Source of the DNA: Elusimicrobiota bacterium
Lineage (GTDB): Bacteria > Elusimicrobiota > JBDRON01
DNA: 64,000 bases
NCBI GenBank assembly: GCA_043810025.1
Contig: JBDRON010000056.1
Coordinates: forward strand, 19,377-83,376
Direction of reading: 5' to 3'
In this document: positions 3,001 through 60,583 of the stretch, in pieces
Numbering within the stretch: position 1 is the first letter of the stretch
Layout of the letters: every line of letters starts with the position of its first letter
Program-made: the position numbers and the translations under genes
The notes under the pieces: model-generated
Seen by the model: only the letters and a program-made list of their open reading frames with translations
Told to the model about the DNA's origin: nothing
The model's database searches: none

Positions 3001-4180
3001 AAAAGCCCTGCGTTATGTCAACTATGAAATACCGCGCCGTTTGACCGCTGAAGAATACAACCTCAGTCTGGTAGCCTACGCCGGCTATGTGCTTACCTCA
3101 TTTTCCCCGCAGGAGTTTTCCGCGGCAAAAAACGGACACACCGCCGCCAAATCCTGGGTGGTCTTCCTGGAACGGCATCTTCAGGCGCTGCCCCCCTTGG
3201 GGAAAGCTTATCTGGCCTACACCTATTGGCGGCTGGGTAATAAGGATCAAGCGAACAAAGTATTGGCTATGGCTTTAGACGGAGCGCGGGATGATTCTCT
3301 CACCGGTGTTTACTGGACACCGGAAAAATATTCCTGGGTCTGGTATGCGGATACGGTGGAAAAACATGCCTTCTTTTTGCGCGCCCTGCAGGAGCTGCGT
3401 CCGAAAGATAGCCGGATCCCGGGGATGGTGCGCTGGTTATTGTTCAGCCGGAAAGGAACTGTTTGGAAATCGACGAAAGCTTCCGTGGCCGCCGTTTTTT
3501 CTTTACTGGATTATCTTAACCAGCAAGGAGCGTTAAGCGGTGAGGAAAATTTTAAGATTAAATGGGGTGACCGTATCGACTCGGTAGTCGTCAAAGCCGA
3601 CGATTGGCTGGATAAACCTTTGCGCTGGCAGGAGAAAGGTTTTGAGATTACCCCGGATAAACAATCGGCAATCGTCGAGAAAAAAGGTCCGGGGGTGGCC
3701 TTCGCCAGTCTGCACTGGACCTATTCCACCGATCAGATACCGGAAGCTTCCACGCCCGGCTTGCTGGAACTAAAACGGATTTTTTACCGGCGGGTGAAAG
3801 AAGGCCGGGAGTATCATCTTAAACCGTTGGTTTCCGGTGATACTATCCACGTGGGCGACCAAATTGAAGTCCAGCTAAAAATCAACACCCGCAGCCGGTT
3901 CGAATATATGCACCTGAAAGATCCGAAAACCGCCGGTTTCGAAGCCGAAACCCTGCTCAGCGGCTGGAAATACGACCCGCTTTCCTTCTACGAGGAGCCG
4001 CGCGATTCGCTAACCAATTTTTTCTTAAGCCGGCTGCCCCACGGCGAATACATTCTGCGCTACCGCCTCAGACCAACCAAACCCGGCCTATACCGCGTCG
4101 GCGCCGCCACTCTGCAGTCGATGTACTCCCCGGAAATGACCGCCCACAGCGCCGGCTTTGTGATTAAGGTGGGGGAGTAA
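23..4180 (+). CDS. alpha-2-macroglobulin family protein (bacterial A2M, thioester-containing); 5' partial, ORF open to window start
   Basis: 1385-aa ORF running from the window edge; thioester-type motif CxEQ present (YPYHCVEQLL); very large multi-domain size; hydrophobic alpha/alpha-toroid-like region LAGLAEARRYG. Confidence 0.75.
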   Translation: MVRRITGGFKTLDNRRTVTISAQDPNYKEFFTQTVKLNELGSASVSLEIPQGRLLGRYTLNAQSSDGQFSNSSAINFSVEEYKRPEFELSLKPAEKVWKYDQPVEVKGSAKYYFGGAVPSAVIKYRIKRQSYIPWCYRYWFAENYTGSPQEMASGELKTDAEGNFSIPFTPTGGQGGYAGNIPEIARFVVEVEGRDAGGRTIQTEQTYQASRQAFYFAVQPQKGFYREKEKIGIETKLLTINDAPLAGKADFQAFVLANQPAKPLSESRHQSGGIWTPPLDLQLKDVPNAELVEEGEIKYGQDGQTIINLRSLPQGVYRIRLKSQDQWGGEVEQNKIFVVAKSVKEAVPVPAASVTLVEKDEYQVGRTARLLIGSALAGGRYWVEIWAGEYFLRSEFIDRGQPVQLIEIPVTEALKGGFTVRWFGVKDLDVYAGQTVIAVPWKEKKLTLSLEPFSKKLKPGEKINWGLRVKNFAGQPQKAEALVLMYDRSLEYYRTSQNPWLDNLYALKPQPYNYLNSVFDPPTIHLPITEGLLEKVLRSFRQPSPGPALPGLRTRRTWSQGYDLDSFANFGSEYKGKNNVMRKEMASVVLEDNKRDAEGRGIVKSSSLPDASGSAAGKPYAGALSKVEARKTFADTAFFKPQISTALDGRGKFSFTAPEQLTSWRIKMFAFTKDAQEGILVEEAQTQKELMVRLDLPRFFREKDQGTVTAIVHNESEVEQEGELLMEIRENKQLINEKLQLAAPQKHFKIKPHQLASFNWLVKIPAGVTNYQVKAAAVSKKLSDVEERELPILPSRQRLSESAFTVLSGDVSRKLAIVLKADPTRINETMVLQIDPQLALTILNTIPFLIEYPYHCVEQLLNKYVPLSIVNELYKKYPNIQKAVSKIPKRQTVTPDWEKDDPRRLLSLMETPWVWESEGRPAPWPLIDLLDPQIVENQKNNILEQLQSAQLSNGAFPWWPGGEADPYITLYVLAGLAEARRYGVEMPKQLVEKALRYVNYEIPRRLTAEEYNLSLVAYAGYVLTSFSPQEFSAAKNGHTAAKSWVVFLERHLQALPPLGKAYLAYTYWRLGNKDQANKVLAMALDGARDDSLTGVYWTPEKYSWVWYADTVEKHAFFLRALQELRPKDSRIPGMVRWLLFSRKGTVWKSTKASVAAVFSLLDYLNQQGALSGEENFKIKWGDRIDSVVVKADDWLDKPLRWQEKGFEITPDKQSAIVEKKGPGVAFASLHWTYSTDQIPEASTPGLLELKRIFYRRVKEGREYHLKPLVSGDTIHVGDQIEVQLKINTRSRFEYMHLKDPKTAGFEAETLLSGWKYDPLSFYEEPRDSLTNFFLSRLPHGEYILRYRLRPTKPGLYRVGAATLQSMYSPEMTAHSAGFVIKVGE

Positions 4181-5724: not shown

Positions 5725-6837
5725 ATGAATAGTACAGAAAAGTTGCAAACAGAGACGATGTATATTAATATGGGGCCGCAGCATCCTTCGACGCACGGGG
5801 TGCTGCGGTTGGGTTTGACTTTGGACGGAGAAGTCGTTACCGCGGCAGATCCGGACATCGGTTATTTACACCGGGGAATAGAAAAGCTGGCCGAGAAACG
5901 CAATTATTTTCAGTTTAACCCGCTGACTGACCGGTTGGATTATCTGGCCTCGATGTCCAATAATTTGGCCTATTGTTTAACCGTGGAAAAAATACTGGGG
6001 GTGGCCATACCGCCGCGGGCCCAGGTGCTTCGCGTAATTATGGCCGAGCTGCAGCGAATTGCCAGCCATCTGGTTTATTTTGGCACTTATGGGGTTGATC
6101 TGGGAGCCGTTACGCCCTTTATGTACGCTTTTCGCGACCGGGAAGTGATTGTCGATTTGTTTGAATCGGTTTGCGGCGCCCGTCTCACCTATAATTATAT
6201 CCGTATCGGCGGGGCGGCCGCTGATCTGCCGGAAGGTTTTGTTGAAAAAACAAAAATATTTATCCAATCGATGGGGCCGCATCTCCAGGATTATGACAAC
6301 CTGCTTTCCGATAATGCTATTTTTCTGGACCGAACCAAAGGGATCGGAATTATCTCTGGAGAAAAAGCGATCGCTTATGGCTTAAGCGGTCCCAATCTGC
6401 GGGCTTCCGGGATAAAGTTTGATTTGCGCAAAGACGAACCTTATTCCGGATACGACCAATATAATTTTGCCGTGCCGGTTGGGACCAGGGGTGATTGCTG
6501 GGATCGGTATTATTTAAGGATGTCCGAGATTCGGGAAAGTTTAAAGATTGTTGAACAGGCTTTGAACAAATTGCCGTCAGGCGAGTATCTGGCTAAGGTA
6601 CCGAAAGTATTGAAAGTCCCGGCGGGAGAAACTTATCAGCATATTGAGTCCCCGCGCGGGGATTTGGGGTTCTATCTGGTCAGTGACGGGACAGAAAAAC
6701 CTTACCGGCTGAAAATTCGGGCGCCCTCCTTTGTTAATTTGCAAATCCTGGGAGATATTATGCCGGGTGGAAAGATCGCCGACATCGTCGCTATTTTAGG
6801 CAGTATCGATATAGTTCTTGGGGAAGTGGATAGGTGA
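5725..6837 (+). CDS. nuoD: NADH-quinone oxidoreductase subunit D (49 kDa)
   Basis: 370 aa; NiFe-hydrogenase-large-subunit-like fold typical of NuoD (MYINMGPQHPSTHGVLRL...RAPSF). Confidence 0.93.
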   Translation: MNSTEKLQTETMYINMGPQHPSTHGVLRLGLTLDGEVVTAADPDIGYLHRGIEKLAEKRNYFQFNPLTDRLDYLASMSNNLAYCLTVEKILGVAIPPRAQVLRVIMAELQRIASHLVYFGTYGVDLGAVTPFMYAFRDREVIVDLFESVCGARLTYNYIRIGGAAADLPEGFVEKTKIFIQSMGPHLQDYDNLLSDNAIFLDRTKGIGIISGEKAIAYGLSGPNLRASGIKFDLRKDEPYSGYDQYNFAVPVGTRGDCWDRYYLRMSEIRESLKIVEQALNKLPSGEYLAKVPKVLKVPAGETYQHIESPRGDLGFYLVSDGTEKPYRLKIRAPSFVNLQILGDIMPGGKIADIVAILGSIDIVLGEVDR

Positions 6838-6865: not shown

Positions 6866-6955
6866 AGGTCATGAGTCATGGGTTATGAGTTATGAGTTTA
6901 TAAAGAATAGAGTCTTTTAATCACAAGACACATGACTCATAACTTGTGACTTATT
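6866..6955. repeat. Family B long palindrome (tandem-heptamer arms + conserved AAAGAATAGAGTCTTTTAA centre), copy B1
   Basis: Arms GTCATGAGTCATGGGTTATGAGTTATGAG / CACAAGACACATGACTCATAACTTGTGAC; lies between nuoD and nuoH. Confidence 0.7.
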
Positions 6956-9028: not shown

Positions 9029-9063
9029 GTTAGTTGTAGGGAACGGTCGCGACCGTTCCGCAT
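9029..9063. repeat. Family D palindrome GTTAGTTGTAGGGAACGGTCGCGACCGTTCCGC, copy D1
   Basis: Perfect 20-bp palindrome GGAACGGTCGCGACCGTTCC directly after the nuoJ stop. Confidence 0.65.
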
Positions 9064-9393: not shown

Positions 9394-9410
9394 ATCAACC
9401 GTATAATATT

Positions 9411-9505
9411 GGTCGTGAGTCATGAGTCTTGGGTTATGAGCTTGAAAGGAATCGATTCTTTTAGACTCAAGACTCATAACGCATGACTCAGGACTTGTAA
9501 CTTGC
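9411..9505. repeat. Family B palindrome, copy B2
   Basis: GGTCGTGAGTCATGAGTCTTGGGTTATGAGCTTGAAAGGAATCGATTCTTTTAGACTCAAGACTCATAACGCATGACTCAGGACTTG; between nuoK and nuoL. Confidence 0.7.
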
Positions 9506-11513: not shown

Positions 11514-11572
11514 GTAGGGCAGGGCTTTAGCTCTGCGTTTTTTAAAGATGCAAGCCTAAAGGCTTGCCCTAC
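11514..11572. repeat. Family C nested-hairpin element (GTAG...CTAC bounded), copy C1
   Basis: GTAGGGCAGGGCTTTAGCTCTGCGTTTTTTAAAGATGCAAGCCTAAAGGCTTGCCCTAC; outer stem GTAGGGCA/TGCCCTAC enclosing two inner hairpins; between nuoL and nuoM. Confidence 0.65.
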
Positions 11573-11628
11573 ATTTTAAATCTAGTTTTAATTTTCCGAA
11601 TTAATCGGATTATCTAGGGAGAAAACAG

Positions 11629-14527: not shown

Positions 14528-14650
14528 AGGAAATTAGAAGTTTGTTGAAGTGTTCCCCCTTTTGAAAGGGGGATGAAGGGGGATTTTAAAATATTGATAA
14601 AATCTCCCCTACCCCTCTTTTTAAAGAGGGAAAAAAACGTCACAGGTGTG
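14528..14650 (+). repeat. Family A triple-hairpin REP-like element, copy A1
   Basis: GAAATTAGAAGTTTGTTGAAGTGTT-CCCCCTTTTGAAAGGGGG-ATGAAGGGGGATTTT...AAATCTCCCCTA-CCCCTCTTTTTAAAGAGGG-AAAAAAACGTCACAG; three consecutive stem-loops; immediately downstream of nuoN. Confidence 0.7.
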
Positions 14651-14690
14651 TAAAGTTCTGAACGTAGCTCGGAACAACTTAGGGGGGATT

Positions 14691-15516: not shown

Positions 15517-15580
15517 TTGTAGGGAACGGTTTTTTAAAGAGGGAAAAAAACGTTACAGACAGGTAAAGTTCCGAGCGAAG
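15517..15580 (+). repeat. Composite repeat: Family D head (GTTGTAGGGAACGG) fused to a Family A 3' tail (TTAAAGAGGGAAAAAAACGTTACAGACAGGTAAAGTTCCGAGCG)
   Basis: The tail matches A1 positions about 14620-14665 almost base for base; the head matches D1/D2. Confidence 0.55.
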
Positions 15581-15684
15581 TGAGGACTAACTTAATTGAT
15601 AAATGAAGGCAAAAAAGCTTTTTTGACTAACTTGTGGATACTGTGGATAAGGTTGTGGATAACTATTACATACAAAAGAACACA

Positions 15685-15770
15685 GGTCATGAGTTGTGGG
15701 TCGTGGGTTGTGAGCTTAAAAGAATCGAGTCTTTTAATCTCAAGACTCATGACTCATAACCCATGACTTA
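15685..15770. repeat. Family B palindrome, copy B3
   Basis: GGTCATGAGTTGTGGGTCGTGGGTTGTGAGCTTAAAAGAATCGAGTCTTTTAATCTCAAGACTCATGACTCATAACCCATGACTTA; upstream of bamA. Confidence 0.7.
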
Positions 15771-15895
15771 TTTCGGGAATTTCGCAGGCAATCGCGGTTC
15801 TAGGGATCATAGTTCTGGTTTGACTTTTGCTGTAAAAATGGTAAGATAAATTAAACTAAACTATTATAAATTGGATTACAAGGAGTTTACTTAAG

Positions 15896-18229
15896 ATGAA
15901 AAAGCTACTGGTTTATTTTAACATAATTTGTTTTTTGTTTGGTCTTTTTCCGACCGCTGTCTTCGCCGAGACCGTCGATGTCTACACTGGAAAAAAAATC
16001 CGGGCAATAGAGATTAAGGGAAATAGAAATGTTAAGGAGAGCGCTATCCGGGAAAAAATGAAGTTGAGTAAAGGTGATTTCTATAATCAAGGAAGTGTCG
16101 ATGAAGATATTCAAAAAATTAATGAATTGGGTTTGTTCGACGAGGTTAAGGTTGATCTGGAAGAAGTGAAGAAAGGGGTGAAACTGATTTATTATTTGGT
16201 GGAAAAACCGATTATTAAAAAAATTGAGTTTAAGGGTAATAAAAAATTTCCTAACCGCCGGTTAAAAGAAAAAATTGCCAGTAAAGAAGAGGAGTCTTAT
16301 AACAAAACCAGAGTTGAAGATGATCTTGGCAAGCTGATCATTTTTTACAAAGATGAAGGTTATAGCGAGGTTAAAGTCGAAGCTTTTCCGGCTGTCGATG
16401 AAAAAACAAATCAAGCGGTGATAACCTTTTTTATTCGGGAAGGCAAACAGGTTTTAGTTGATAAAGTCCTTTTGAGCGGAACAAAAGATTTTAGCGCCAA
16501 GAAAGTGCTTAAAGGGATGAAACTGCGCAGGAAAAAGGTTTTTAAAGAAGATACTCTGCGGGCGGATATCAAGGAGATAGAAAGTTTTTATAAAAATCGC
16601 GGGTATTTGCAAGTGACGGTTGTCGAACCACAGATTACTTACAATAAGGAGCGGACAAAAGTCAGTATCGAAATAAAAGTTGTTGAGGGCAGGAAATTCA
16701 GGTTTGGAGCTATTACTTTTGAAGGGAGCAGTTTGTACCCGGAAAAAAAATTATTGACTAACCTTACCTTTAAACCCGGGCAGATTTTTTCCCAGCAGGA
16801 ACTGGACAAAAGTGTGGAAAATGTTCATCAGCTTTATTATAGCAAAGGATATCTGCGCTCGTTGGTGGAAGCTAAACAAGATGTGCAAGAGATTGCCGGT
16901 ATTTTAAATGTGGCCGTCAATATTACTGAGGGCGGGATTGTTTATATCGATCGGATTTATATTGAAGGCAATACCTTCACCAAAGATTATGTGCTCCGCC
17001 GGGAACTGCTGGTTAAGGAAGGGGATCCGTTTGATTTAACTAAAATTAAACGCAGTCAGGAAAAACTTTACAATTTGGGATTTTTAAAAGAGGTGTCGAT
17101 AGACATTCAAGAAACACCGGTTGAGGATAAGGCCGACTTGGCCATTGATATTAAAGAAGACAAGCCGGGAATTTTAACCATGGGCGCGGGCTATTCTTCC
17201 GTGGACCGGTTTTCCGGAACCTTGCAGGTTTCCCATGTCAATATGTTTGGCCTGGGCCAGCGTCTTAACCTGCTCTGGGAGTTCGGCCAGCGCAAACAGA
17301 ATTATGAAATCGGTTTTACTGAGCCCTGGATCTTCAGTAACCCGATTTATGCCGAAAGTCCTTCGGCTTTGTTTCGTTGGTTAAATCGCCATCAAACCAC
17401 CGCCGGTTTCGGTGTTTTTAACACGATTCGCAAAAGGCAGTATGGCACGGAGTCCGATGCTTATAAAGAACAGCGCCGGGGTGGAGATTTGCGCTTGGGC
17501 CGCAGTTTTACTGATTTCGTTTCGGGAAACCTTACATACTCTTATGAAGAAATAAAGCTATTTGATTCTATCGTGACCGATGTTAAACCTTCTCTGGCGG
17601 TTACCTCCAGCATTTCGTCCGGGTTATCCCGGGATAGCCGCGATAACATTTTTGATGCGGCCCGCGGGTCCCGAAATAGTGTTTCAGTGGAACTGGCCGG
17701 CGGTCCGGTTGGCGGGAATGTGCATTTCTACCGGCCGAGCGTTACCTCTTCCTGGTTTTTTCCGACCTTTTGGAAGTTTGTGTTTTCCACCAATTTGCGC
17801 TTGGGTCTGATTCGCTCTTTTCCACCATCATCAGAAATACCGGTCTATGAGCGGTACTATGTGGGTGGGGCGGATACGGTGCGCGGCTATGACTACCGCG
17901 GGCAAATCGGCCCTCAGGAAGGCGGCAATATCATGAGCGTGGTGAATGCTGAATACAAGTTTCCTTTTGTCGAAGAAGGCGGTCGGACAATATTGCAGGG
18001 AGCCTTCTTCTTTGATTTGGGCGGCGCCTGGCGGAACTTTCGGGATATAAGGTTAGCTCTGGGTAACGAAGAACTGAATTGGAAAGCCGGGGTGGGTTTC
18101 GGGATCCGGATTTTTGTGATGGCGGTATTCCCGATCAGGCTGGACTGGGGCTATGGTTTAAATCATCGCCGGGACATTCAAAAAGCCAGCCGTCACCAGT
18201 TCTACTTTACCATCGGCCAGGTGTTTTAA
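15896..18229 (+). CDS. bamA: outer membrane protein assembly factor BamA
   Basis: 777 aa; N-terminal signal peptide, repeated POTRA-like segments (IEFKGNKKF..., ITFEGSSLY..., IYIEGNTFT...); C-terminal beta-barrel ending ...FYFTIGQVF; followed by skp-lpxD. Confidence 0.9.
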   Translation: MKKLLVYFNIICFLFGLFPTAVFAETVDVYTGKKIRAIEIKGNRNVKESAIREKMKLSKGDFYNQGSVDEDIQKINELGLFDEVKVDLEEVKKGVKLIYYLVEKPIIKKIEFKGNKKFPNRRLKEKIASKEEESYNKTRVEDDLGKLIIFYKDEGYSEVKVEAFPAVDEKTNQAVITFFIREGKQVLVDKVLLSGTKDFSAKKVLKGMKLRRKKVFKEDTLRADIKEIESFYKNRGYLQVTVVEPQITYNKERTKVSIEIKVVEGRKFRFGAITFEGSSLYPEKKLLTNLTFKPGQIFSQQELDKSVENVHQLYYSKGYLRSLVEAKQDVQEIAGILNVAVNITEGGIVYIDRIYIEGNTFTKDYVLRRELLVKEGDPFDLTKIKRSQEKLYNLGFLKEVSIDIQETPVEDKADLAIDIKEDKPGILTMGAGYSSVDRFSGTLQVSHVNMFGLGQRLNLLWEFGQRKQNYEIGFTEPWIFSNPIYAESPSALFRWLNRHQTTAGFGVFNTIRKRQYGTESDAYKEQRRGGDLRLGRSFTDFVSGNLTYSYEEIKLFDSIVTDVKPSLAVTSSISSGLSRDSRDNIFDAARGSRNSVSVELAGGPVGGNVHFYRPSVTSSWFFPTFWKFVFSTNLRLGLIRSFPPSSEIPVYERYYVGGADTVRGYDYRGQIGPQEGGNIMSVVNAEYKFPFVEEGGRTILQGAFFFDLGGAWRNFRDIRLALGNEELNWKAGVGFGIRIFVMAVFPIRLDWGYGLNHRRDIQKASRHQFYFTIGQVF

Positions 18230-18232
18230 TAG

Positions 18233-18328
18233 TGCAAAACGCAAAGCGCAAAACGCAAAATGCAAAGTCAAAAGCATCGAGTCTTTAAAAGTCCTTAAGT
18301 TTTGCGCTTTGCGCATTGAGTTTTACGC
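18233..18328. repeat. Family B-type palindrome, copy B4 (arms built from GCAAAAC heptamers)
   Basis: TGCAAAACGCAAAGCGCAAAACGCAAAATGCAAAGTCAAAAGCATCGAGTCTTTAAAAGTCC...TTTTGCGCTTTGCGCATTGAGTTTTACGC; same centre as B1-3 but different arm heptamers. Confidence 0.65.
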
Positions 18329-18358
18329 TATTATGTTTGTTGGGGGGGAGTCAAAAAT

Positions 18359-19132
18359 ATGAATAGAAAATATTTTACTTTGCTCTTGATTGTTAGTATC
18401 GGGGCGCTGCCGTGTTGGGGATTTCGGCTTACCGATCAGCCGCAGACCGCAGCGACTCCATCCAGTGTTCAGCCGGCCAAACTTCTTCAAGCGGCTCCGG
18501 CCGAAAAAAAAGCGCCGAAGATTGCTTTTGTGGATATGGAGAAAATTTTTAACGAATTTCCGGAAACCAAAACAGCTAAAGAGCAATTGGATGCGATGGT
18601 TAATAAAGGCAAGGAAGAAATTGTTTTAAAAGAACAAAAAGTAAAAAATTTAAAAGCTGAAATTGTTTCTCTTTCTGTCCAACCTTCGTCGCCGGCTGTC
18701 AAGCAGCAGTCCTATACGGTCCAACCATCATCGCCTTCGATCAATCAGCAGTCCTATACTGTTCCGCCATCCTCATCGTCATGGAGTCAACCATCGGATC
18801 TGGAACAACCGGTTTCTTCCCGCTCTTCTGCGGAGATTCTGTCGGATAAACAGGCGGAATTAAAACAAGCTCAAGACGCTTTGGACAAATTTATTGCCGA
18901 CACCGAACAACGGCTTACGGAATGGGAAAGTAAAGCCATGCGCGGGATCTTGGGCAAGTTTTACCAATCCCTCCGCAAAATTGCCGAGGAGGAAAATTTT
19001 AGCATTATTGTTGATAAAAACAGTGTTCTTTATGGTGAGCAGGGATTGGATATCACCGATCGTCTCCAAAAAGACTTGGAAAAAGCAGCCGAAGAATTAA
19101 TTGAAATTGAAGAAAATCCGGAGGATGAGTAA
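18359..19132 (+). CDS. skp: periplasmic chaperone Skp (OmpH family) with internal P/S/Q-rich tandem repeat insert
   Basis: Signal peptide; coiled-coil Skp-like ends; position between bamA and lpxD; tandem 14-aa repeats QPSSPAVKQQSYTV/QPSSPSINQQSYTV. Confidence 0.72.
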   Translation: MNRKYFTLLLIVSIGALPCWGFRLTDQPQTAATPSSVQPAKLLQAAPAEKKAPKIAFVDMEKIFNEFPETKTAKEQLDAMVNKGKEEIVLKEQKVKNLKAEIVSLSVQPSSPAVKQQSYTVQPSSPSINQQSYTVPPSSSSWSQPSDLEQPVSSRSSAEILSDKQAELKQAQDALDKFIADTEQRLTEWESKAMRGILGKFYQSLRKIAEEENFSIIVDKNSVLYGEQGLDITDRLQKDLEKAAEELIEIEENPEDE

Positions 19133-23180: not shown

Positions 23181-23265
23181 GTTAGTTGTAGGGAACGGTC
23201 GTGACCGTTCCGCTTTTGTCATGTAACAGAAATATAAGTTGTAGGGAAAGCATATCTGCGTTCCC
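23181..23265. repeat. Family D element, copy D2 (two GTTGTAGGGA units)
   Basis: GTTAGTTGTAGGGAACGGTCGTGACCGTTCCGC...GTTGTAGGGAAAGCATATCTGCGTTCCC; downstream of lpxI. Confidence 0.6.
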
Positions 23266-25702: not shown

Positions 25703-26155
25703 ATGTCGGGATCATTTTTATACATTGGAATTCATTTTATTTTTAGTACAAAAAATCGTGTGAACATAATTACTAGCGAAATAAAAGATAGGTTGTATTC
25801 CTATATTGGCGGAATAATAAAATCAATTAAAGGTATACCAATTGCTATAAATGGAATGCCTGATCATATCCATGTTTTTTGTATTGTATCACGGGAAATG
25901 ACCATTGCTGATTTTATGCGTATTGTTAAATCAAATTCATCAAAATGGTTGAATGAAACTTTTCCTGTTAAGCCAAAATTCCAATGGCAAGACGGATACG
26001 GTTCGTTTTCAGTCACTAAATCATCAGAAAATAAAATCATTGAATATGTAAAAAATCAAGAAGAACATCATAAACAAAAATCATTTCAGGATGAATTTAT
26101 TGAATATTTAAGATTGATGAAAATTGACTATGATGAAAGATATATATGGCAATAA
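25703..26155 (+). mobile_element. tnpA: IS200/IS605-family Y1 HUH transposase (TnpA) / REP-associated tyrosine transposase (RAYT)-like, solitary
   Basis: 150 aa; HUH motif MPDHIHVFCIV; C-terminal catalytic Tyr in EYVKNQEEHH (Y-x-x-NQ motif of IS200 TnpA/RAYT); no tnpB partner. Confidence 0.75.
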
Positions 26156-26400
26156 TACTCCGCCGCCCCGTTGGGGCTTATATTTTCATGGGTGATTATA
26201 GCGGGGATTACATCCCCGCCTATAATCCGCAATCCCTTCGGGATAATAAATTGAAAAAGATTGTAGTATGCTTTTATTTGTCCTGAAAGGACAACGGAAT
26301 ATAGGCGGGGGGCTTGCCCCCCGAAAATGAAATATTCCATGAACGATAAGCCCTGAAAGGGCGGAGGAAAAGCGCCCAAATTATTTATAAATTTTCAGTG
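26156..26400 (+). other. structured GC-rich hairpin cluster downstream of tnpA (possible IS end / REP-like hairpins / small RNA)
   Basis: Hairpins TATAGCGGGGATTACATCCCCGCCTATA (26195-26225), GTCCTGAAAGGAC, GGCGGGGGGCTTGCCCCCCG (about 26300-26322), GCCCTGAAAGGGC; the outer complement CTCCGCCGCCCC...GGGCGGAG frames the region. Confidence 0.45.
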
Positions 26401-27735: not shown

Positions 27736-27764
27736 TGTATATAACTGCGCATAATTAAAGGGAC
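27736..27764. repeat. left arm of a 29-bp perfect inverted repeat (TATATAACTGCGCATAATTAAAGGGACAT)
   Basis: Exact reverse complement found at 27958-27986; the pair flanks a 193-bp segment containing Family A copy A3. Confidence 0.8.
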
Positions 27765-27817
27765 ATCAGCAAAAGTGTCATAGCAACGAAAGCTGGTATC
27801 CAGAAAGTGTGATATAC

Positions 27818-27957
27818 AGAAATTTGAATGTTTGTTTTGCGTATATTCCCCCTTAAAAAAGGGGGACACAGGGGGATTTTGAAAATTAGAAATATTGTCT
27901 AAATCTCCCCTACCCCTCTTTTTAAAAGAGGGGAAAAAATACCACAGAACGAAACTC
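27818..27957 (+). repeat. Family A triple-hairpin element, copy A3 (inside the 29-bp IR pair)
   Basis: GAAATTTGAATGTTTGTTTTGCGTATATT-CCCCCTTAAAAAAGGGGG-ACACAGGGGGATTTTGAAAATTAGAAATATTGTCTAAATCTCCCCTA-CCCCTCTTTTTAAAAGAGGGG-AAAAAATACCACAG. Confidence 0.7.
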
Positions 27958-27986
27958 ATGTCCCTTTAATTATGCGCAGTTATATA
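27958..27986. repeat. right arm of the 29-bp perfect inverted repeat; contains the start codon of the downstream wHTH gene
   Basis: ATGTCCCTTTAATTATGCGCAGTTATATA; ATG 27972 (MRSYIVEK...) lies inside it. Confidence 0.8.
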
Positions 27987-34620: not shown

Positions 34621-34872
34621 TCAGGTACATGACCGCTCACAATTAACTGGAAACACAGAAATTTTAATGTTTGTTTTTTTTGTGTTCCCCCTTAATGAAC
34701 TTCTTATTTCCCAGTAGTTTTTTCTGAGGTGTTTCAAGCCTAAGCCTTCCGGCTTTTTTTTAGAGGTAAAAAAATCAATCGCCTGGCAAACTGACTCTTT
34801 GGCTTTCTTTTTACGTAAGTGGTCCAAATTTCGCAGTGATTTATCAAAAGACGGTTTAAATTCAAATCTCAT
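34621..34872 (-). CDS. RelE/ParE-family toxin-like protein, 3' end replaced by a partial Family A repeat (likely inactivated)
   Basis: MRFEFKPSFDKSLRNL...GLGLKHLRKNYWEIR matches RelE/ParE toxin N-terminus and core; the expected C-terminal catalytic region is missing, and the last about 15 codons are encoded by the Family A head sequence (34657-34695). Confidence 0.5.
   Translation of the reverse strand: MRFEFKPSFDKSLRNLDHLRKKKAKESVCQAIDFFTSKKKPEGLGLKHLRKNYWEIRSSLRGNTKKTNIKISVFPVNCERSCT
34657..34695 (+). repeat. partial Family A element (5' head only: AGAAATTTTAATGTTTGTTTTTTTTGTGTTCCCCCTTA), copy A9
   Basis: Matches the head of A3 (GAAATTTGAATGTTTGTTTTGCGTATATTCCCCCTT); embedded in the 3' end of the RelE-like ORF. 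Confidence 0.55.
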
Positions 34873-35236: not shown

Positions 35237-35400
35237 GAATTTAAGAAACACTTCAGCCAGGGGAAGTCCGTGGGAATCGGACACTGCCCCGCAACGGTGA
35301 TTCCTTCCGCCATCAGGCGGATTGGATAAGTCCGGTCTACTGTCTGAAGCATAAATCCTAAAAAGTGTTTTTAGGATTGCCTGCGCGGGCGGGATGGGTT
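35237..35400 (+). promoter_or_regulatory. cobalamin (AdoCbl) riboswitch
   Basis: B12-box-like core ...AGGGGAAGTCCGTGGGAATCGGACACTGCCCCGCAACGGTGA... (the conserved ...GCCACTG... region appears as CACTGCC); 5' UTR of the cobO-btuFCD-cobCUTS operon. Confidence 0.75.
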
Positions 35401-36023: not shown

Positions 36024-36683
36024 ATGAGCAAAATAGTTTATTTAGTAAAAAGAAGTTTGTTGTTAAGTTTTGCGTTTTGCGCTTTGCACTTTACGCTTGT
36101 TTTCGCGGCTTCACCGCAAAGGATTGTCTCTTTGTCGCCTTCCGTAACGGAGATACTTTTTTTGCTTGGTTTGGGGGATAAAGTGGTCGGGGTCACCACT
36201 TCCTGCGATTATCCGCCGCTGGCCAAAGAAAAATTTAAAGTTGGTGATTTTTCCAATCCGAACCTGGAAAAAATTGTTGCGCTTCAACCGGATCTGGTTT
36301 TTGTTACCGACGGCATACAGGAGCCGCTGGCGCGGAAATTGAGGCAGTTTGGTTTAAGGGTGGAGGTGGTTGCCCCCCAGAATATTGAAGGGATTCTCCG
36401 CTCATTTGTTTCAATTGGTGAATCTACCGGAACAAGCGGGCCGGCGATGAGGTTGGTAAAAGAAATTCGCCGCAGGTTGAATAAGGTTGAGGTGAAAGTT
36501 GCCGCTGTTCCCCGGGAGAAAAGGCCGAAAATTTTTCTGGAGATTTGGCCTAAACCCTTGATGACGGTCGGCAAAGACTGTTTTGTTGACCTTGACCCGG
36601 ATTTATTGCTGCGCACCGGACCGCGTTTTGTCCAGGGGGTAGAAGATTTGTACCGGATTTTCTACCCGGATGATAAACCATGA
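36024..36683 (+). CDS. btuF: periplasmic cobalamin-binding protein (ABC substrate-binding, BtuF-like)
   Basis: Signal peptide, then PQRIVSLSPSVTEILFLLGLGDKVVGVT (BtuF/FecB family). Confidence 0.78.
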   Translation: MSKIVYLVKRSLLLSFAFCALHFTLVFAASPQRIVSLSPSVTEILFLLGLGDKVVGVTTSCDYPPLAKEKFKVGDFSNPNLEKIVALQPDLVFVTDGIQEPLARKLRQFGLRVEVVAPQNIEGILRSFVSIGESTGTSGPAMRLVKEIRRRLNKVEVKVAAVPREKRPKIFLEIWPKPLMTVGKDCFVDLDPDLLLRTGPRFVQGVEDLYRIFYPDDKP

Positions 36684-37378
36684 AAAAAATACCGCCGTTT
36701 AATTTTTTAGTTATTCTGCTGATTTTTTTGTTGGGTGTCTTTATTTTATCGATTTTTATCGGGTCCAGTTCTATTTCTCCATTGAAAATAATGAAAATTC
36801 TTCAGGCAAAGTTTTTGGCCGGTCAGACTTCCTGGGAAACTGCGGTTATCTGGAATATCCGTCTTCCCCGGATTTTTCTCGGGTTTATAGTTGGGGCCGG
36901 TTTGGGCTGTGTGGGGGCGGTGTTCCAGGGGTTGCTGGGTTCTCTCAGCCAAACCGAGGGGAAACTGTTGGTTCTGGTCAGTATTATTATTTTGCTGGGG
37001 ATTGCGCTGCTGCAGCTGTTCTCCTGGCAGCTTAACCTGATTTCTTTAAGCGAAGATAAAGCCGCTCATCTGGGTGTGGATACGGAACGAACTAAAAAAG
37101 CTGTTTTTACTATTGCCTCGATCATCATCGGGGCGGTAGTCAGCGTTTCCGGGTTGATTGGTTTTGTCGGTTTGATTATTCCGCATATCATCCGGCTGTT
37201 TATCGGCCCTGACCACCGCTATTTATTAATCGGTTCGGCTTTGGGCGGGGGGATATTCTTGATTTTTTCCGACACAATCGCCCGAACGATATTCAGCCCG
37301 GTGGAACTGCCGGTCGGCATAGTCACCGCAATTTTTGGCGCCCCTTTTTTCCTTTATCTGTTAAGAAAGGGGAGATAA
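36680..37378 (+). CDS. btuC: FecCD-family ABC permease (BtuC-like), unusually short (about 100-aa internal in-frame deletion)
   Basis: N- and C-terminal FecCD motifs (RLPRIFLGFIVGAGLG..., GFVGLIIPHIIRLFIGPDHRYLL...ELPVGIVTAIFGAPFFLYLLRK), but only 232 aa versus about 330 expected. Confidence 0.65.
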   Translation: MKKIPPFNFLVILLIFLLGVFILSIFIGSSSISPLKIMKILQAKFLAGQTSWETAVIWNIRLPRIFLGFIVGAGLGCVGAVFQGLLGSLSQTEGKLLVLVSIIILLGIALLQLFSWQLNLISLSEDKAAHLGVDTERTKKAVFTIASIIIGAVVSVSGLIGFVGLIIPHIIRLFIGPDHRYLLIGSALGGGIFLIFSDTIARTIFSPVELPVGIVTAIFGAPFFLYLLRKGR

Positions 37379-37459
37379 TAGCCATTTTTGTGGTAGCCGC
37401 AACCTTTAGGTGCGTTTCAAATTATGCGCAGGCTAAAGCCTGCGGCTACCAAGTGATAC

Positions 37460-37560
37460 TGATGTTATGTGTGTTCCCCTTTTAGAAAGGGGGATAAGGG
37501 GGATTTAGAAAATAATTACTAAATCTCCCCTAACCCCTCTTTATAAAAGAGGGGAATAAG
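37460..37560 (+). repeat. Family A triple-hairpin element, copy A4
   Basis: TGATGTTATGTGTGTT-CCCCTTTTAGAAAGGGGG-ATAAGGGGGATTTAGAAAATAATTACTAAATCTCCCCTAA-CCCCTCTTTATAAAAGAGGGG-AATAAG; between btuC and btuD. Confidence 0.7.
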
Positions 37561-39457: not shown

Positions 39458-40513
39458 ATGGAAAAAGTGGAAGAAATTGTAGTGAAAATTGCCGGGCTTG
39501 ATTCGGATCTGCTAAGGAGGACACAAGAAAGGTTGGATAATCTTACCAAGCCGCCGGGCAGTTTGGGAAGGCTGGAAGAGTTGGCCAGGATGATCGTCGG
39601 AATGACCGGAAAAGCTAACCCCTCTTTGGACAACAAGGTTATTTTTACCCTTGCTGCTGATCATGGAGCGGCGGAGGACGGGGTCAGCGCTTATCCCCGG
39701 GAAGTGACGGCTCAGATGGTTTATAATTTTTTAAATGGCGGGGCGGCGATCAATGTTTTGGCTAAGCATGCGGGGGCGAGGGTGGTGGTCGTGGATCTGG
39801 GAGTGGCCGTCGATTTAAAACCTCATCCGGAGTTAATGATTAAAAAAATAAATTATGGGACAAAAAACATGCGCCAGGGGCCGGCGATGAGCCGTGGGGA
39901 AGCGATAAAATCCATCGAAGCCGGGAAGGAAATTTTTCAGGTGGCGGCGGAGAAAGGGATTGATATCGCCGGGACCGGAGATATGGGCATTGGGAATACG
40001 ACGGCCAGCGCGGCTTTAACGGCTGTTTTTACCGGCCGGGCTGTGGAGGATGTTACCGGCCGCGGTACCGGCCTTGAGGATCAGGCTTTAAAAAACAAAG
40101 TTGCCTTTATTGCTGAGGCGATAGGCTTAAACAAGCCGGATAAAAACGATCCGTTGGATGTGCTGGCTAAACTGGGCGGGTTTGAGATCGGGGGGTTGGC
40201 CGGAATAATTTTGGCGGCTGCTTCCCGAAGGGTGCCGGTGGTGATTGATGGTTTTATTTCCGGGACGGCGGCTTTGCTGGCTTATCAGCTAGAGCCAAAA
40301 GTTAAGGATTATCTGATCGCTTCGCATTGTTCGGTAGAAAAGGGGCATAAAATAATTCTTGATTTTATTGGTTTAAAACCGTTTTTGGATTTGAATTTAA
40401 GGTTAGGCGAAGGAACGGGAGCGGCCTTGGGCATCAGTCTGGCCGAAGCTAGTATAAAAATATTAACCCAAATGGCCACCTTTGCCAAAGCCGGAGTTTC
40501 CACAAAAAAGTAG
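39458..40513 (+). CDS. cobT: nicotinate-nucleotide--dimethylbenzimidazole phosphoribosyltransferase
   Basis: CobT family (KPPGSLGRLEELA..., GIGNTTASAAL, ...ALGISLAEASIKIL); AAGGAG RBS before ATG 39458 (track start 39374 is an over-extension). Confidence 0.88.
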   Translation: MEKVEEIVVKIAGLDSDLLRRTQERLDNLTKPPGSLGRLEELARMIVGMTGKANPSLDNKVIFTLAADHGAAEDGVSAYPREVTAQMVYNFLNGGAAINVLAKHAGARVVVVDLGVAVDLKPHPELMIKKINYGTKNMRQGPAMSRGEAIKSIEAGKEIFQVAAEKGIDIAGTGDMGIGNTTASAALTAVFTGRAVEDVTGRGTGLEDQALKNKVAFIAEAIGLNKPDKNDPLDVLAKLGGFEIGGLAGIILAAASRRVPVVIDGFISGTAALLAYQLEPKVKDYLIASHCSVEKGHKIILDFIGLKPFLDLNLRLGEGTGAALGISLAEASIKILTQMATFAKAGVSTKK

Positions 40514-40516
40514 TAG

Positions 40517-40590
40517 TTGTGGGTCATGGGTCTTGAGCTCAAAAGACTCGATTCCTTTAAAATCACAACCCATGACACACAACTCAGAAC
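40517..40590. repeat. Family B palindrome, copy B5
   Basis: TTGTGGGTCATGGGTCTTGAGCTCAAAAGACTCGATTCCTTTAAAATCACAACCCATGACACACAACTCAGAAC; between cobT and cobS. Confidence 0.7.
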
Positions 40591-40616
40591 CATTACTTTA
40601 GGGAGCTTGTTTTATC

Positions 40617-41383: not shown

Positions 41384-41432
41384 GTGATGTGATTTGTGTT
41401 CCCTCTTTATAAAAGAGGGAATGAAAAAAATC
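41384..41432 (+). repeat. internally deleted Family A element (head + hairpin 3 only), copy A8
   Basis: GTGATGTGATTTGTGTT-CCCTCTTTATAAAAGAGGG-AATGAAAAAAATCGC. Confidence 0.5.
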
Positions 41433-41472
41433 GCGCTAAGCTAAATAAACCAAATCAGAAGGAGTAACTAAA

Positions 41473-43347: not shown

Positions 43348-43462
43348 TTTTGGGGGATCAGTTGTATTAAAATGTCCCCCTTTGATAAAGGGGGATTAAG
43401 GGGGTTGGGTTTTATATTTTTAAACTCCCCTAACCCCTCTTTAATAAAGAGGGGAATTAAAG
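43340..43462 (+). repeat. Family A triple-hairpin element, copy A5
   Basis: GAATTGATTTTGGGGGATCAGTTGTATTAAAATGT-CCCCCTTTGATAAAGGGGG-ATTAAGGGGGTTGGGTTTTATATTTTTAAACTCCCCTAA-CCCCTCTTTAATAAAGAGGGG-AATTAAAG. Confidence 0.7.
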
Positions 43463-45995: not shown

Positions 45996-47132
45996 ATGCG
46001 CGAGCCAAAAATACTTTTTCTTTATATTTCGGTTAGTTCCGGCCATCAACAGGCGGCTGAATCAATTCAAAAAGCGATAAAAGAAATTGTCCCGGAAGCA
46101 AAGACTTTAGGGTTGGATTCCTTTAATTATGCCTATCCTTTTGTGGGCAAATTTATTGCCGGCACTTATCTGCAAATTGTTAAACGGACACCATTTCTTT
46201 GGGATTATCTTTACGATAACCCCGATGTGGTTACCGCCACGCAGGAAATTCGCGAGGTGTTAAACCGCCTTAATTCCAGGAAATTCAAAAAATTGCTTGC
46301 CTCGTTTCATCCTTCGGCCGTTGTTTGTACCCAGGCTGTTCCCTGTAGTGTGGTGGCTGCCGCGAAACGACACCGGAAGATTAACGTGCCGTTGATCGCC
46401 GTGATTACGGATTTTGCCGCCCATGCTTACTGGGTTTATAAAGAAGTCGATGCTTATGTCGTGGCTAATGAGAGTACCCGGCGGGAACTGATGAAAAAAG
46501 GCATCCCCGAAGAAAAAATTTATCTCTTTGGCATCCCGATCAATCCGGTGTTTAATCAGCAGGTCGGAAAAGAAGACGCCCGGCTCAGTTTGGGGTTTAA
46601 ACCCAATTTGCCGGTCTTATTGGTAATGGGCGGCAGTCAAGGGCTGGGGCCGATCGAGAGTATACTCTCCGCCCTGGATTGGATATCCATTCCTTTTCAG
46701 GTGGCGGTAATTACCGGACTGAATGAAAAATTGCGGCGTTCTTTAAAAAAAGATTTTGCCAAAAGTATTCATCGGTTTCACATTTTTGGTTATATCGATG
46801 GGATTGACAAGTTTATGGAAGCGGCGGATATTTTGATTACCAAACCCGGTGGATTAACGTCTTCAGAGGCCTTGGCAAAAGGTTTGCCGATGATTATTGT
46901 CAATCCGATACCCGGTCAGGAGGAAAGAAACAGCAGTTATTTAATTAAACATGGTGTTGCTGAACGCGCGGATAATCTTGAAGAATTGGCTCATTATGTA
47001 AGTGATTTTTTTTCTCATCCGGTAAAACTGTCCCGGATGCGCCATCAAGCCCTCTCCATGGCCCAGCCTGATGCGGCTTATAATACGGCTTTATTGGTTT
47101 TGAAACAAATCGGCTGGCCGACAATAGTGTAA
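45996..47132 (+). CDS. glycosyltransferase family 28, MGDG-synthase/UgtP-like (diacylglycerol glycosyltransferase)
   Basis: N-terminal KILFLYISVSSGHQQAAESI (MGDG_synth domain signature) and C-terminal GT-B fold (LVMGGSQG..., ITKPGGLTSSEALAKGLPMIIVNPIPGQEERN). Confidence 0.75.
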   Translation: MREPKILFLYISVSSGHQQAAESIQKAIKEIVPEAKTLGLDSFNYAYPFVGKFIAGTYLQIVKRTPFLWDYLYDNPDVVTATQEIREVLNRLNSRKFKKLLASFHPSAVVCTQAVPCSVVAAAKRHRKINVPLIAVITDFAAHAYWVYKEVDAYVVANESTRRELMKKGIPEEKIYLFGIPINPVFNQQVGKEDARLSLGFKPNLPVLLVMGGSQGLGPIESILSALDWISIPFQVAVITGLNEKLRRSLKKDFAKSIHRFHIFGYIDGIDKFMEAADILITKPGGLTSSEALAKGLPMIIVNPIPGQEERNSSYLIKHGVAERADNLEELAHYVSDFFSHPVKLSRMRHQALSMAQPDAAYNTALLVLKQIGWPTIV

Positions 47133-47190
47133 AACGCAAAGCGCAAAACTTAAAGTCAAAAGATAAAAGAATCAAGTTAGTCGCTTTCGG
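47129..47190. repeat. half Family B element (GCAAAAC-type arm + AAAAGAATCAAG centre, right arm missing), copy B8
   Basis: GTAAAACGCAAAGCGCAAAACTTAAAGTCAAAAGATAAAAGAATCAAGTTAGTCGC, abutting Family A copy A6. Confidence 0.5.
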
Positions 47191-47204
47191 CGCTGACTTT
47201 TAAA

Positions 47205-47340
47205 ATTTCCTTCTTCTTTTGTTCCCCTCTTTTATAAAGAGGGGTTAGGGGAGATTTGGTAATTATTATTGTCTAAATCCCCCTTATCCCCCTTTAAAAA
47301 AGGGGGAAATTAGATTTTTGCTACACATTGAATTTCCTTA
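47205..47340 (-). repeat. Family A triple-hairpin element, copy A6 (reverse orientation)
   Basis: Reverse complement reads GGAAATTCAATGTGTAGCAAAAATCTAATTT-CCCCCTTTTTTAAAGGGGG-ATAAGGGGGATTTAGACAATAATAATTACCAAATCTCCCCTAA-CCCCTCTTTATAAAAGAGGGG-AACAAAAG. Confidence 0.7.
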
Positions 47341-52006: not shown

Positions 52007-52023
52007 TTGTATAGGAGTTTTAA

Positions 52024-52082
52024 TGTAGGGCAAGCCTTTAGGCTTGCGTTTCTAAAACCGCAGGGCTAAAGCCCTGCCCTAC
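52024..52082. repeat. Family C nested-hairpin element, copy C2 (approximately the reverse complement of C1)
   Basis: GTAGGGCAAGCCTTTAGGCTTGCGTTTCTAAAACCGCAGGGCTAAAGCCCTGCCCTAC. Confidence 0.65.
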
Positions 52083-60408: not shown

Positions 60409-60535
60409 GAATTCCCTTCCCCTTAAGGCTGGGTTTCCCCCTTTTTAAAGGGGGATCAAGGGGGATTTTACGACGATAAAAATCCTCCCTAACCCTCCTT
60501 TACAAAGGAGGGAATAACTAAAAAAACCGCGTTTT
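60408..60535 (+). repeat. Family A triple-hairpin element, copy A7 (compensatory stem-3 variant)
   Basis: ...TTT-CCCCCTTTTTAAAGGGGG-ATCAAGGGGGATTTTACGACGATAAAAATCCTCCCTAA-CCCTCCTTTACAAAGGAGGG-AATAACT; stem 3 reads CCCTCCTTT/AAAGGAGGG here versus CCCCTCTTT/AAAGAGGGG elsewhere. Confidence 0.7.
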
Positions 60536-60583
60536 TAGTAATATTATTTTTGACATTACCGCTAATTAGAAAGGGAGGTTAGA

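Follow-up and report, generated by a model that had tools for sequence, protein, structure and literature searches.

Family A, a dispersed inverted-doublet repeat of an Elusimicrobiota genome, and its kinship with the ends of DUF559 genes

We analysed Family A, a dispersed intergenic repeat found in a 64,000-nucleotide stretch of an Elusimicrobiota genome (positions 19,377 to 83,376 of contig JBDRON010000056.1, assembly GCA_043810025.1), the whole of which is referred to here as the window. The modules that make up this repeat are also the terminal inverted repeats of DUF559 genes across phyla, an association that is well supported. The module counts at DUF559 loci make Family A the gene-less counterpart of a DUF559-associated element, comparable to a miniature inverted-repeat transposable element (MITE) or to a REPIN, a hairpin-forming doublet of repetitive extragenic palindromes (REPs). 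We put it at somewhat better than an even chance (a probability of roughly 0.55) that Family A is a selfish repeat acting at the level of DNA, not an RNA gene, and that its relation to the DUF559 unit is that of a MITE to an insertion sequence (IS) or of a REPIN to a REP-associated tyrosine transposase (RAYT). Both this relation and mobilisation by DUF559 proteins are what we infer. An original prediction, made from the letters of the window alone, had proposed a REP- or MITE-like palindromic repeat, dispersed between genes and under structural constraint; this description stands, and the inverted doublet is indeed REPIN-like.

Repeats of related architecture, known as BoxC, potential intrastrand triplex (PIT) or triplex motif (TM) elements, have been on record since 1992, occur in thousands of copies at rearrangement-prone loci and form triplexes in vitro; a 2015 survey noted that no mobility function had ever been found near those of the TMECO type (PMC4666352). 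The DUF559 link offers a candidate and testable partner both for such repeats and for the DUF559 family, to which no function is assigned, including the E. coli pair of ycjD and BoxC, and our search extends the repeat class to many uncultured phyla. If DUF559 proteins were indeed the missing enzymes of such repeats, they would represent a new class of repeat system, driven by a nuclease, recognising structure and either mobile or self-maintaining, that ranges from E. coli (ycjD/BoxC) to Elusimicrobiota. These elements also matter for annotation: metagenome assemblies break at them, and they resemble structured RNAs and give rise to spurious P/S/G-rich tails on proteins.

DUF559 genes lie between inverted Family A-type modules

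A Family A copy comprises a left module, a spacer of 10-35 nt and an inverted right module, the two inverted modules being ~30 nt each and the core 85-95 nt long. Each module is built from a 9-nt pyrimidine block, a 2-3-nt loop, a 9-nt complementary purine block, another 2-3-nt loop and a 9-nt mirror-image purine/T block. In the copy designated A1 (Table 1), for instance, the left module reads TCCCCCTTT-tg-AAAGGGGGA-tga-AGGGGGATT and is followed by the spacer and the right module.

The connection with DUF559 emerged from loci of other genomes that carry the repeat. At a Bacteroidia locus (L108), a 119-aa open reading frame (ORF) replaces the spacer of one copy, and an all-against-all ORF comparison groups it with three ORFs that abut half-elements at a Nitrospirota and a Methylococcales locus. 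These four ORFs, enclosed by or abutting half-elements (two in L064, one each in L093 and L108), match PF04480 with E values of 1e-30 to 1e-42 and are the only DUF559 genes in the window and the 113 repeat-bearing loci among the matches listed. A reverse test started from 80 metagenomic DUF559 loci picked by protein patterns alone (54-67% identity to the query), in which modules were called by strict regular expressions. Among the 76 usable loci, 66 had a right module, 53 a left module and 47 both, as against 8, 7 and 0, respectively, for 115 other ORFs in the same loci. It is because the same modules flank both ends of 47 of 76 DUF559 genes, and of none of the 115 controls, that we regard Family A as the gene-less form of this element.

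At most loci, the upstream end of the DUF559 gene reads CCCCCCTTT-loop-AAAGGGGGG-NN-GGGGGGATTT before the ATG, and its 3' end leads into AAATCCCCCC-TNN-CCCCCCTTT-loop-AAAGGGGGG, a sequence that in many cases is read through as a protein tail (e.g. ..EIPPSPPFSKGG). The inverted repeats around the gene are 31-41 nt long, 78-100% complementary and 341-388 nt apart, and the gene-bearing unit, ~450 bp in all, encodes a ~115-aa DUF559 (Vsr-like PD-(D/E)XK) protein whose catalytic motif columns are invariant. Module types differ by DUF559 lineage, and do so even within 2 kb of locus L064, where one unit has CCCCTCCC/GGGAGGGG (L064a) and the other CCCCTCTTT (L064b); a further type, CTCCCTCTTT, occurs at L176.

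The protein clade is large: of the candidates scored, more than 5,900 database clusters match one of its members at E 1e-20 or better. They come from many candidate phyla and carry no annotation beyond 'very-short-patch-repair endonuclease' or 'endonuclease domain-containing protein', and the only solved relative is the structural-genomics entry 3HRL. Previous work grouped Vsr, DUF559 and DUF2726 with the homing endonuclease I-Bth0305I in a survey of PD-(D/E)XK proteins (PMC3424549), and a Caulobacter DUF559 protein causes DNA damage in vivo, with an SOS response when the cytosine methylase is missing (PMC12907096). Membership of a defence system was considered and set aside, the similarity to DpdF and to methyl-directed restriction enzymes being confined to the domain level. 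No report of an association between DUF559 and triplex repeats was found in the open-access literature.

A comparable arrangement exists in E. coli K-12, where ycjD is a DUF559 gene whose reading frame ends in a degenerate module (..SPSP followed by the stop; NC_000913.3 1351039-1351828, L196). On its 3' side, part of the ycjD 3' end recurs as a duplicated fragment, together with a complete TMECO/BoxC copy a short way upstream of fabI. Only 3,378 of 5,426 E. coli genomes carry ycjD, and BoxC-like places number 1-30 per genome (median 17). In an evenly spaced sample, genomes with the ycjD-proximal copy have 12-29 such places and those without it mostly 1-5, a suggestive comparison in which phylogeny is uncontrolled.

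Transposition of the doublet in Methylococcaceae

The doublet of Methylococcaceae-type copies is enclosed by outer inverted repeats of the GTAAG type (GTAAGTATTCACC ... GGACTGAATAnTTAC). Of 24 such elements, 17 have 8-bp flanks that agree at 7 or more of the 8 positions (15 of them perfectly), compared with 0 of 24 for the next 8 bp outward. Homologous ends with 8-bp duplications can also be read from the sequence of two Nitrospirota copies (L046 and L065). Because the GTAAG inverted repeats carry 8-bp target duplications, the doublet is seen to transpose in Methylococcaceae; there, and in some Nitrospirota, it moves as a classical MITE. The re-packaging of the doublet within IS-type ends in Methylococcaceae shows layered parasitism. 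Methylococcaceae loci also contain one-hairpin deletion forms (L034, L104 and L083), like the copy at 41384 in the window.

GTAAG ends with 8-bp duplications are a hallmark of IS66 elements (PMC11946415). No IS66 transposase was present in the loci examined, and no full-length IS with the GTAAGTATTCAC ends of Methylococcaceae emerged from a search that gave only more MITEs and short derivatives, the large neighbouring ORFs being those of VWA, histidine kinase, exosortase and similar proteins. GTAAG-starting, IS66-type ends are absent from the window copies.

A gene-less, probably selfish repeat and its possible nuclease

Gene-less doublets are the abundant form of the element. We hypothesize that a DUF559 nuclease encoded elsewhere in the genome would recognise the folded module and nick it, and that copies might then spread, or be homogenised, in trans through host repair and recombination. 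The stems of the window copies may be kept either by this DUF559-driven process or by selection at the level of the element. Copies would be tolerated inside operons because they are without terminator or promoter features. A more far-reaching proposal is that DUF559 proteins are the missing enzymes of BoxC/PIT/triplex-motif repeats, the module-DUF559-inverted module unit being autonomous or RAYT-like and the gene-less doublets its non-autonomous offspring; this we put forward tentatively, at odds clearly short of even.

A number of observations weigh against this reading. The 64-kb window holds no DUF559 gene, and its six full copies have neither an inverted repeat beyond the modules nor a target duplication. 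The 8-bp duplications and GTAAG ends of the Methylococcaceae elements point to a DDE (IS66-like) transposase and not to DUF559. To our knowledge, a PD-(D/E)XK nuclease alone does not perform transposition. The DUF559 units likewise show no outward extension of the inverted repeat and no target duplication, the exception being a single subgroup whose outer inverted repeat is displaced. Most closely related DUF559 genes have their flanks in common and look vertically inherited, not recently transposed; no evidence of recent transposition of these units was found, near-identical genes keeping the same flanks. Putative remnants of the DUF559 5' untranslated region and 3' end in gene-less spacers were convincing by eye and scored the same as shuffles (7.8 versus 8.1 and 7.0 versus 7.0). 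Moreover, covariation counts are inflated by the kinship of copies, which represent ~3-5 independent module variants, and conservation across phyla partly reflects how copies were found, the search pattern (given below) fixing one arm per stem. With no detectable gene remnants in the spacers, the gene may have been either lost from doublets or inserted into them.

The main alternative takes the second direction. Doublets would be primary, spread by borrowed transposases (as in Methylococcaceae) or by recombination, and DUF559 would be a homing-like parasite that cleaves empty doublets and copies itself into their spacer. We think this unlikely, though it would account for the gene always lying exactly between two modules, for empty doublets far outnumbering filled ones (4 DUF559 genes in the 113 loci listed), for the spacers without gene remnants and for a Methylococcaceae MITE that moves with its own inverted repeats and target duplication; the Vsr/DUF559 clade, furthermore, includes a proven homing endonuclease, I-Bth0305I (PMC3424549). 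However, in most loci the reading frame continues into the right module in one constant phase (with matches up to residues 130-134) and module types follow DUF559 lineages, both of which fit long co-inheritance as one unit, and no filled/empty allele pair at one locus was found. Like I-Bth0305I (an EDxHD enzyme), DUF559 proteins are small nucleases of the Vsr/DUF559 clade whose gene is present or absent at a fixed point of a conserved sequence; unlike it, their genes lie outside introns and inteins, and the flanks are a multi-copy palindromic repeat, not a host gene.

Family A copies in the window

The six full and three partial copies that had been predicted are present at their positions (Table 1), with a pattern search, a covariance model and a general repeat search in agreement. 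The pattern AAAGGGGGAN{2,3}AGGGGGN{15,45}CCCTAMCCC, which spans parts of all three predicted hairpins, matches at 14565, 27858, 37486, 43387 and 60447 on the plus strand and at 47242-47295 on the minus strand. These are exactly the six full copies, where 0.00 matches were expected from 100 shuffles. Covariance model R1, built from 59 family members, scores the six copies at 73.7-88.8 bits (E 1e-20 to 1e-24) and finds no other significant match in the window beyond the one-hairpin copy near 41397. The general repeat search recovers the family independently (D3, D4, D5, D10, D15 and I2-I17).

Table 1. Positions of Family A copies, their derivatives and other repeats in the window
Feature	Position	Strand	Interval first predicted	R1 score (bits)	Context or remarks
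Full copy A1	core 14550..14634	+	14528-14650	75.6	nuoN-like/coaX junction
Full copy A2	core 27843..27937	+	27818-27957	79.1	longest spacer
Full copy A3	core 37471..37558	+	37460-37560	88.8	FecCD/btuC-like to ABC ATPase gene
Full copy A4	core 43372..43458	+	43340-43462	87.0	3' of TonB-dependent receptor gene
Full copy A5	core 47220..47310	-	47205-47340	88.1 (-), 64.4 (+)	inverted relative to flanking + strand genes
Full copy A6	core 60432..60516	+	60408-60535	73.7	mvhG-like/mvhA-like junction; CCCTCC subfamily
One-hairpin derivative	41384..41432	+		20.5 (at 41397-41469)	head, single CCCTCTTT..AAAGAGGG hairpin, tail; 41401-41429 in hairpin-3 family (D5)
Head fragment	34650..34695	+			stops in first pyrimidine block (..GTGTTCCCCCTTAA); 83% identity to 27811-27856 (D15)
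Tail fragment	15531..15594	+			80% identity to 14618-14681 (D10)
Inverted repeat I9	27738-27769 / 27955-27986				32 nt, 97% complementary, encloses A2
Second repeat family	6871-6952, 9405-9498, 15682-15771, 40509-40593, 63311-63408	both orientations			repeat search

The tail fragment consists of the 3' arm of hairpin 3, the A-rich tail and ~40 nt matching the sequence downstream of A1. All six full copies lie between co-directional plus-strand genes, five in sense and one in antisense, and the predicted gene contexts are borne out by Pfam matches (Proton_antipo_M and Pan_kinase; FecCD and ABC_tran; TonB receptor and NAD_synthase-like; Oxidored_q6 and NiFeSe hydrogenase). The copies are 69-89% identical among themselves and 80-86% identical to copies of other phyla; being no more alike to each other than to those, they look old, with conserved stems. 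Diverged and without target duplications, the six are probably old insertions.

Copy A2 is enclosed by the inverted repeat I9, whose arm sequence occurs in just these two places in the window, so that A2 was either inserted into a pre-existing palindrome or forms a composite element with the 32-nt repeat. Four metagenomic DUF559 units (L132, L141, L152 and L181) likewise lie inside an outer inverted repeat of ~20 nt. The outer repeats at A2 and at these units hint at insertion into palindromes or at composite elements. Just upstream of A3, the gene of a FecCD/BtuC-like permease appears split into overlapping ORFs at 36024-36683 and 36680-37378 (+), of which the second aligns with profile positions 166-311 alone; a frameshift or a sequencing error may be the cause.

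Mirror covariation and a role in RNA

The blocks of the window copies are TCCCCCTTT/AAAGGGGGA/AGGGGGATT and CCCCTCTTT/AAAGAGGGG/GGGGAGATT. All 12 modules of the six copies have 8-9 of 9 Watson-Crick pairs and 8-9 of 9 allowed triads (G·GC, A·AT, T·AT), and each of the 12 reaches 17-18 of 18 in total, compared with a shuffle maximum of 9-15. Of 233 distinct modules, 153 have a C-run that mirrors the hairpin arm exactly, a level reached by 0 of 2000 shuffles, and CCCCTC, CCCCCC and CCCTCC variants each have a matching C-run. A module can fold as a hairpin and, by analogy with TMECO, could form a purine-motif triplex in single-stranded DNA. A G-quadruplex was also considered and set aside, each strand having only three G-runs.

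These data refine the three-hairpin anatomy of the original prediction. Its three GC-clamped hairpins and A-rich tail are seen in the sequence as described, but the middle one, stem 2, is pairing between the inner blocks of the two inverted modules, and in gene-bearing relatives a DUF559 gene of 340-390 nt lies between its arms. A single long hairpin fits 95 sequences about as well as three hairpins do (94.7% and 94.4% of cells paired, respectively). The one strongly covarying pair, 111-123 in hairpin 3 (UA in 52 sequences, CG in 34), is explained by the local hairpin alone, and the module/mirror model supersedes both folds. For the 'bulged' T of stem 2, in its 3' arm (AAATC-T-CCCC), there is no compensating change in the pairing partner; the T tracks hairpin 3 instead: CCCCTCTTT goes with AAATCTCCCC, CCCCCCTTT with AAATCCCCCC, and CCCTCCTTT (in the copy at 60432 and in L006 and L027) with AAATCCTCCC. 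The constrained unit is therefore the three-block module.

Selection on secondary structure, of RNA or of a DNA hairpin, had been proposed from a copy (60408) in which both arms of a stem had changed together. The variant, CCCTCCTTT/AAAGGAGGG, does exist, but it is common to copies in other phyla (L006 and L027) and is therefore a subfamily marker, not a local compensatory event. In A6 it is carried by the hairpin arm, by its complement and by the mirrored C-run (AAATCCTCCC). More generally, the informative covariation is three-way, linking arm, complement and mirror block, which a three-hairpin RNA does not predict, and the proposal of selection on RNA structure is not upheld.

It seems to us quite improbable that the elements act in RNA, whether to stabilise, attenuate or process operon mRNAs or to yield small RNAs. 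The placement of the six window copies, all between co-directional genes and five of them in sense, is what such a role would suggest, the hairpin arms covary, and predicted folds are more stable than those of shuffles (z -2.5 to -6.3). Across the family, however, co-directional contexts are just 35 sense and 19 antisense (naive ORF calls, p = 0.04), and BoxC has no strand bias (PMC4666352). The element is nearly self-complementary, each copy scoring 48-66 bits with R1 on the opposite strand. Mirror covariation has no role in an RNA hairpin, purine-motif triplexes do not form in RNA (PMC4666352), and the stem 2 'bulged' T follows stem 3 and not its partner. An intrinsic terminator was not seen either: instead of a U run, an A run comes after hairpin 3 and a purine run after hairpin 1, and no terminator-like site occurs around A6 in 60300-60650. 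It is thus the mirror covariation, the near-symmetry, the weak orientation bias, the absence of promoter and terminator activity in PIT elements and the absence of a terminator-like site at A6 that disfavour a role in RNA.

An Rfam search of the copies gave no family match, in agreement with what had been expected of a new repeat. At relaxed thresholds, A1 attracts only sub-threshold microRNA-precursor models, as befits an element that is, as a whole, one long imperfect palindrome. The sole match in the window at gathering score is an adenosylcobalamin (AdoCbl) riboswitch at 35238-35379 (+; 53.1 bits, gathering score 50), upstream of btu-like transport genes, a cluster that is interrupted by two Family A copies.

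The Y1 transposase of the window

Family A had also been linked to a solitary Y1 transposase gene in the window as a REPIN/RAYT system, and this link fails on three counts: the protein falls below the RAYT model, its gene is not flanked by Family A, and it has no homologue at the repeat loci. Specifically, the 150-aa product of the gene (25703-26155, +) scores 69.4 bits with the NCBIfam model of IS200-type TnpA (cutoff 55) and 21 bits with that of RAYT (cutoff 80). The ~240 nt on its 3' side (26160-26400) hold unrelated GC-rich hairpins, a Family A copy is absent from its flanks, and none of the 113 repeat-bearing loci has a Y1 homologue among the matches listed. Mobilisation of Family A as a REP or REPIN by this enzyme, for which the inverted-doublet architecture and the presence of the gene might be cited, is in our view hardly credible. 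In addition to the scores, the flanks and the missing homologues, GTAG precedes a hairpin in two copies only, and the window contains separate GTAGGG-plus-hairpin repeats that suit a REP better.

These GTAGGG repeats, each with a GC-rich hairpin, occur at 9029-9061, 23181-23213, 11514-11582, 52015-52082 and ~37420-37450, examples being GTAGGGAACGGTCGCGACCGTTCC and, as inverted pairs, GTAGGGCAAGCCTTTAGGCTTGC. REP/REPIN-like in form, they would be better candidate partners of a Y1/RAYT enzyme than Family A.

Comparison with known repeat systems

The original prediction regarded Family A as an undescribed type. Its module architecture is, however, that of the described BoxC/PIT/TM intrastrand-triplex repeats (PMC4666352). 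BoxC was reported adjoining envM/fabI in E. coli in 1992 (Bergler), PIT elements followed in 2000 (Hoyne and Maher) and TM/TMECO repeats in 2015 (Holder, PMC4666352); BoxC has also been listed as a 56-bp family of 32 copies with a complex fold (PMC2267715). The TMECO consensus is CCCTCNCCC N3-6 GGGNGAGGG N3 GGGNGAGGG, with 9-nt stems and loops of 3-6 and 3 nt, and the wider ITxF definition allows stems of 6-15 nt with at most one mismatch and loops of 1-6 nt, block 3 mirroring block 2 (PMC4666352). The 3,610 TMECO copies, from 262 proteobacterial genomes, are always intergenic and without strand bias. TMECO/PIT elements have no promoter or terminator activity and are associated with loci rearranged among E. 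coli strains, and a TMECO oligonucleotide forms a triplex in vitro; the authors saw no mobility genes nearby (PMC4666352).

Family A modules agree with this class in their three 9-nt blocks with short loops, G/C-richness, mirror covariation, multi-copy occurrence and intergenic placement, in being widespread with copy numbers that vary between relatives, and in their lack of promoter or terminator features. They differ in block sequence (CCCCCTTT/AAAGGGGG/GGGGGATT, as against CCCTCNCCC/GGGNGAGGG in TMECO), departing from the TMECO consensus; in being arranged as inverted doublets with a 10-35-nt spacer; in their hosts, which include Elusimicrobiota, Nitrospirota, Thermodesulfobacteriota, Methylococcaceae and others, the 262 TMECO genomes being proteobacterial; and in that modules of their type end DUF559 genes, whereas no enzyme is reported for BoxC in the open-access literature.

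With REPIN-RAYT systems, Family A shares short palindromic units arranged as inverted doublets in many dispersed intergenic copies, and the DUF559 genes share low copy number, largely vertical inheritance, flanking by inverted units and the occurrence of several types per genome (L064). In contrast, DUF559 is a Vsr-like PD-(D/E)XK protein and not an HUH Y1 enzyme, the hairpins are mirror repeats, the spread catalysed by DUF559 is conjectural and a conserved GTAG is absent: GTAG(GG) overlaps only A1 and A2 (on the minus strand), the other copies having TTAG. Like MITEs, the elements are small, multi-copy, without an ORF and bounded by inverted repeats, with one-hairpin derivatives, a gene-bearing relative that has the same ends and, in the Methylococcaceae/Nitrospirota subfamily, true 8-bp target duplications. 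They depart from MITEs in that the gene-bearing unit, of only ~450 bp, encodes no transposase fold that is known, target duplications are absent from window copies and DUF559 units alike, and the GTAAG ends are an outer layer confined to some lineages.

Distribution and turnover

A pattern scan of one genome per species gave at least 113 loci. The hosts include Methylococcaceae, Methylobacter and Crenothrix; Nitrospirota and Thermodesulfovibrionales; Syntrophales, Desulfobaccales and Desulfobacterales; Gallionellaceae, Thiobacillaceae and Sulfuricella; and Calditrichota, Bacteroidia, Hyphomicrobiales and others, with Gamma- and Betaproteobacteria and Thermodesulfobacteriota represented. Several metagenome-assembled genomes (MAGs) have many copies, and R1 adds further copies and tandem pairs in the loci listed. 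About 108 of 119 copies are intergenic, being clear of any ORF of at least 90 aa. They are found in co-directional, convergent and divergent gene contexts, with no positional regularity besides intergenic placement, and no neighbour gene other than DUF559 recurs among the 113 loci listed. A scan of 2.9 million viral contigs gave 0 matches.

The MvhG protein of the window is 100% identical to an Elusimicrobiota protein in NCBI, and the mvhG|mvhA junction (window 60409-60583) differs between relatives. In one with a 74% identical MvhG (L115) the spacer is entirely absent, and in another (L114; GCA_017973895.1, 1806-1866; MvhG 96% identical) the junction holds a different module type, CCCTCCCCC-TCGAT-GGGGGAGGG, inside which the contig ends. 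This site therefore turns over, with module types being replaced.

A further possibility is that the repeats serve the host as structural DNA motifs (triplexes or hairpins), perhaps marking sites of replication pausing, hotspots of recombination or signals of chromosome organisation, and are kept by selection at host level without a dedicated enzyme, their association with DUF559 being a side effect. We regard this as improbable. TMECO repeats, which form triplexes in vitro and sit at rearranged E. coli loci with no mobility genes nearby (PMC4666352), offer a precedent, and the window copies, 80-86% identical to those of other phyla and 69-89% to one another, speak of stem constraint and not of a recent burst. 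Against this stand the very strong and position-specific enrichment of modules at both ends of DUF559 genes, the target duplications that prove transposition in one lineage, the patchy distribution with copy numbers that differ between relatives, and the lack of any positional regularity except that copies are intergenic.

Two loci show other arrangements of the modules. A Nitrospirota contig (MAG117, L087) carries solo 'nested' modules (C5 - hairpin - G5ATTT) at 473-511, 3841-3879 and 6319-6357, at gene boundaries 2.5-3.4 kb apart, with the anatomy of single E. coli BoxC units. The Bacteroidia locus L108 (MAG JALHRL01, 940-1900) has a dense tandem cluster within 900 bp, comprising a gene-less doublet, the DUF559-bearing unit, another doublet whose hairpin 3 contains an insertion and an extra left module, with a similar leader of ~40 nt before each unit.

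Other repeats in the window

A second intergenic repeat family of ~80-100 nt is present in five copies in both orientations (Table 1; D1, D2, D7, I1, I3 and I5), with GAGTCATGGGT/GAGTCTTGAG-like runs around a central AAAGAATCGAkTCTTTT palindrome. A third, small family of AAAACGCAAAGCGCAAAAC-like units occurs at 18228-18329, 36056-36097 and 47123-47206 (D9, D12, I11, I16 and I22), and one of its copies lies directly upstream of the Family A copy A5. Finally, a 42-nt tandem duplication (18677-18760, 81% identical; D16) lies within the ORF at 18359-19132.

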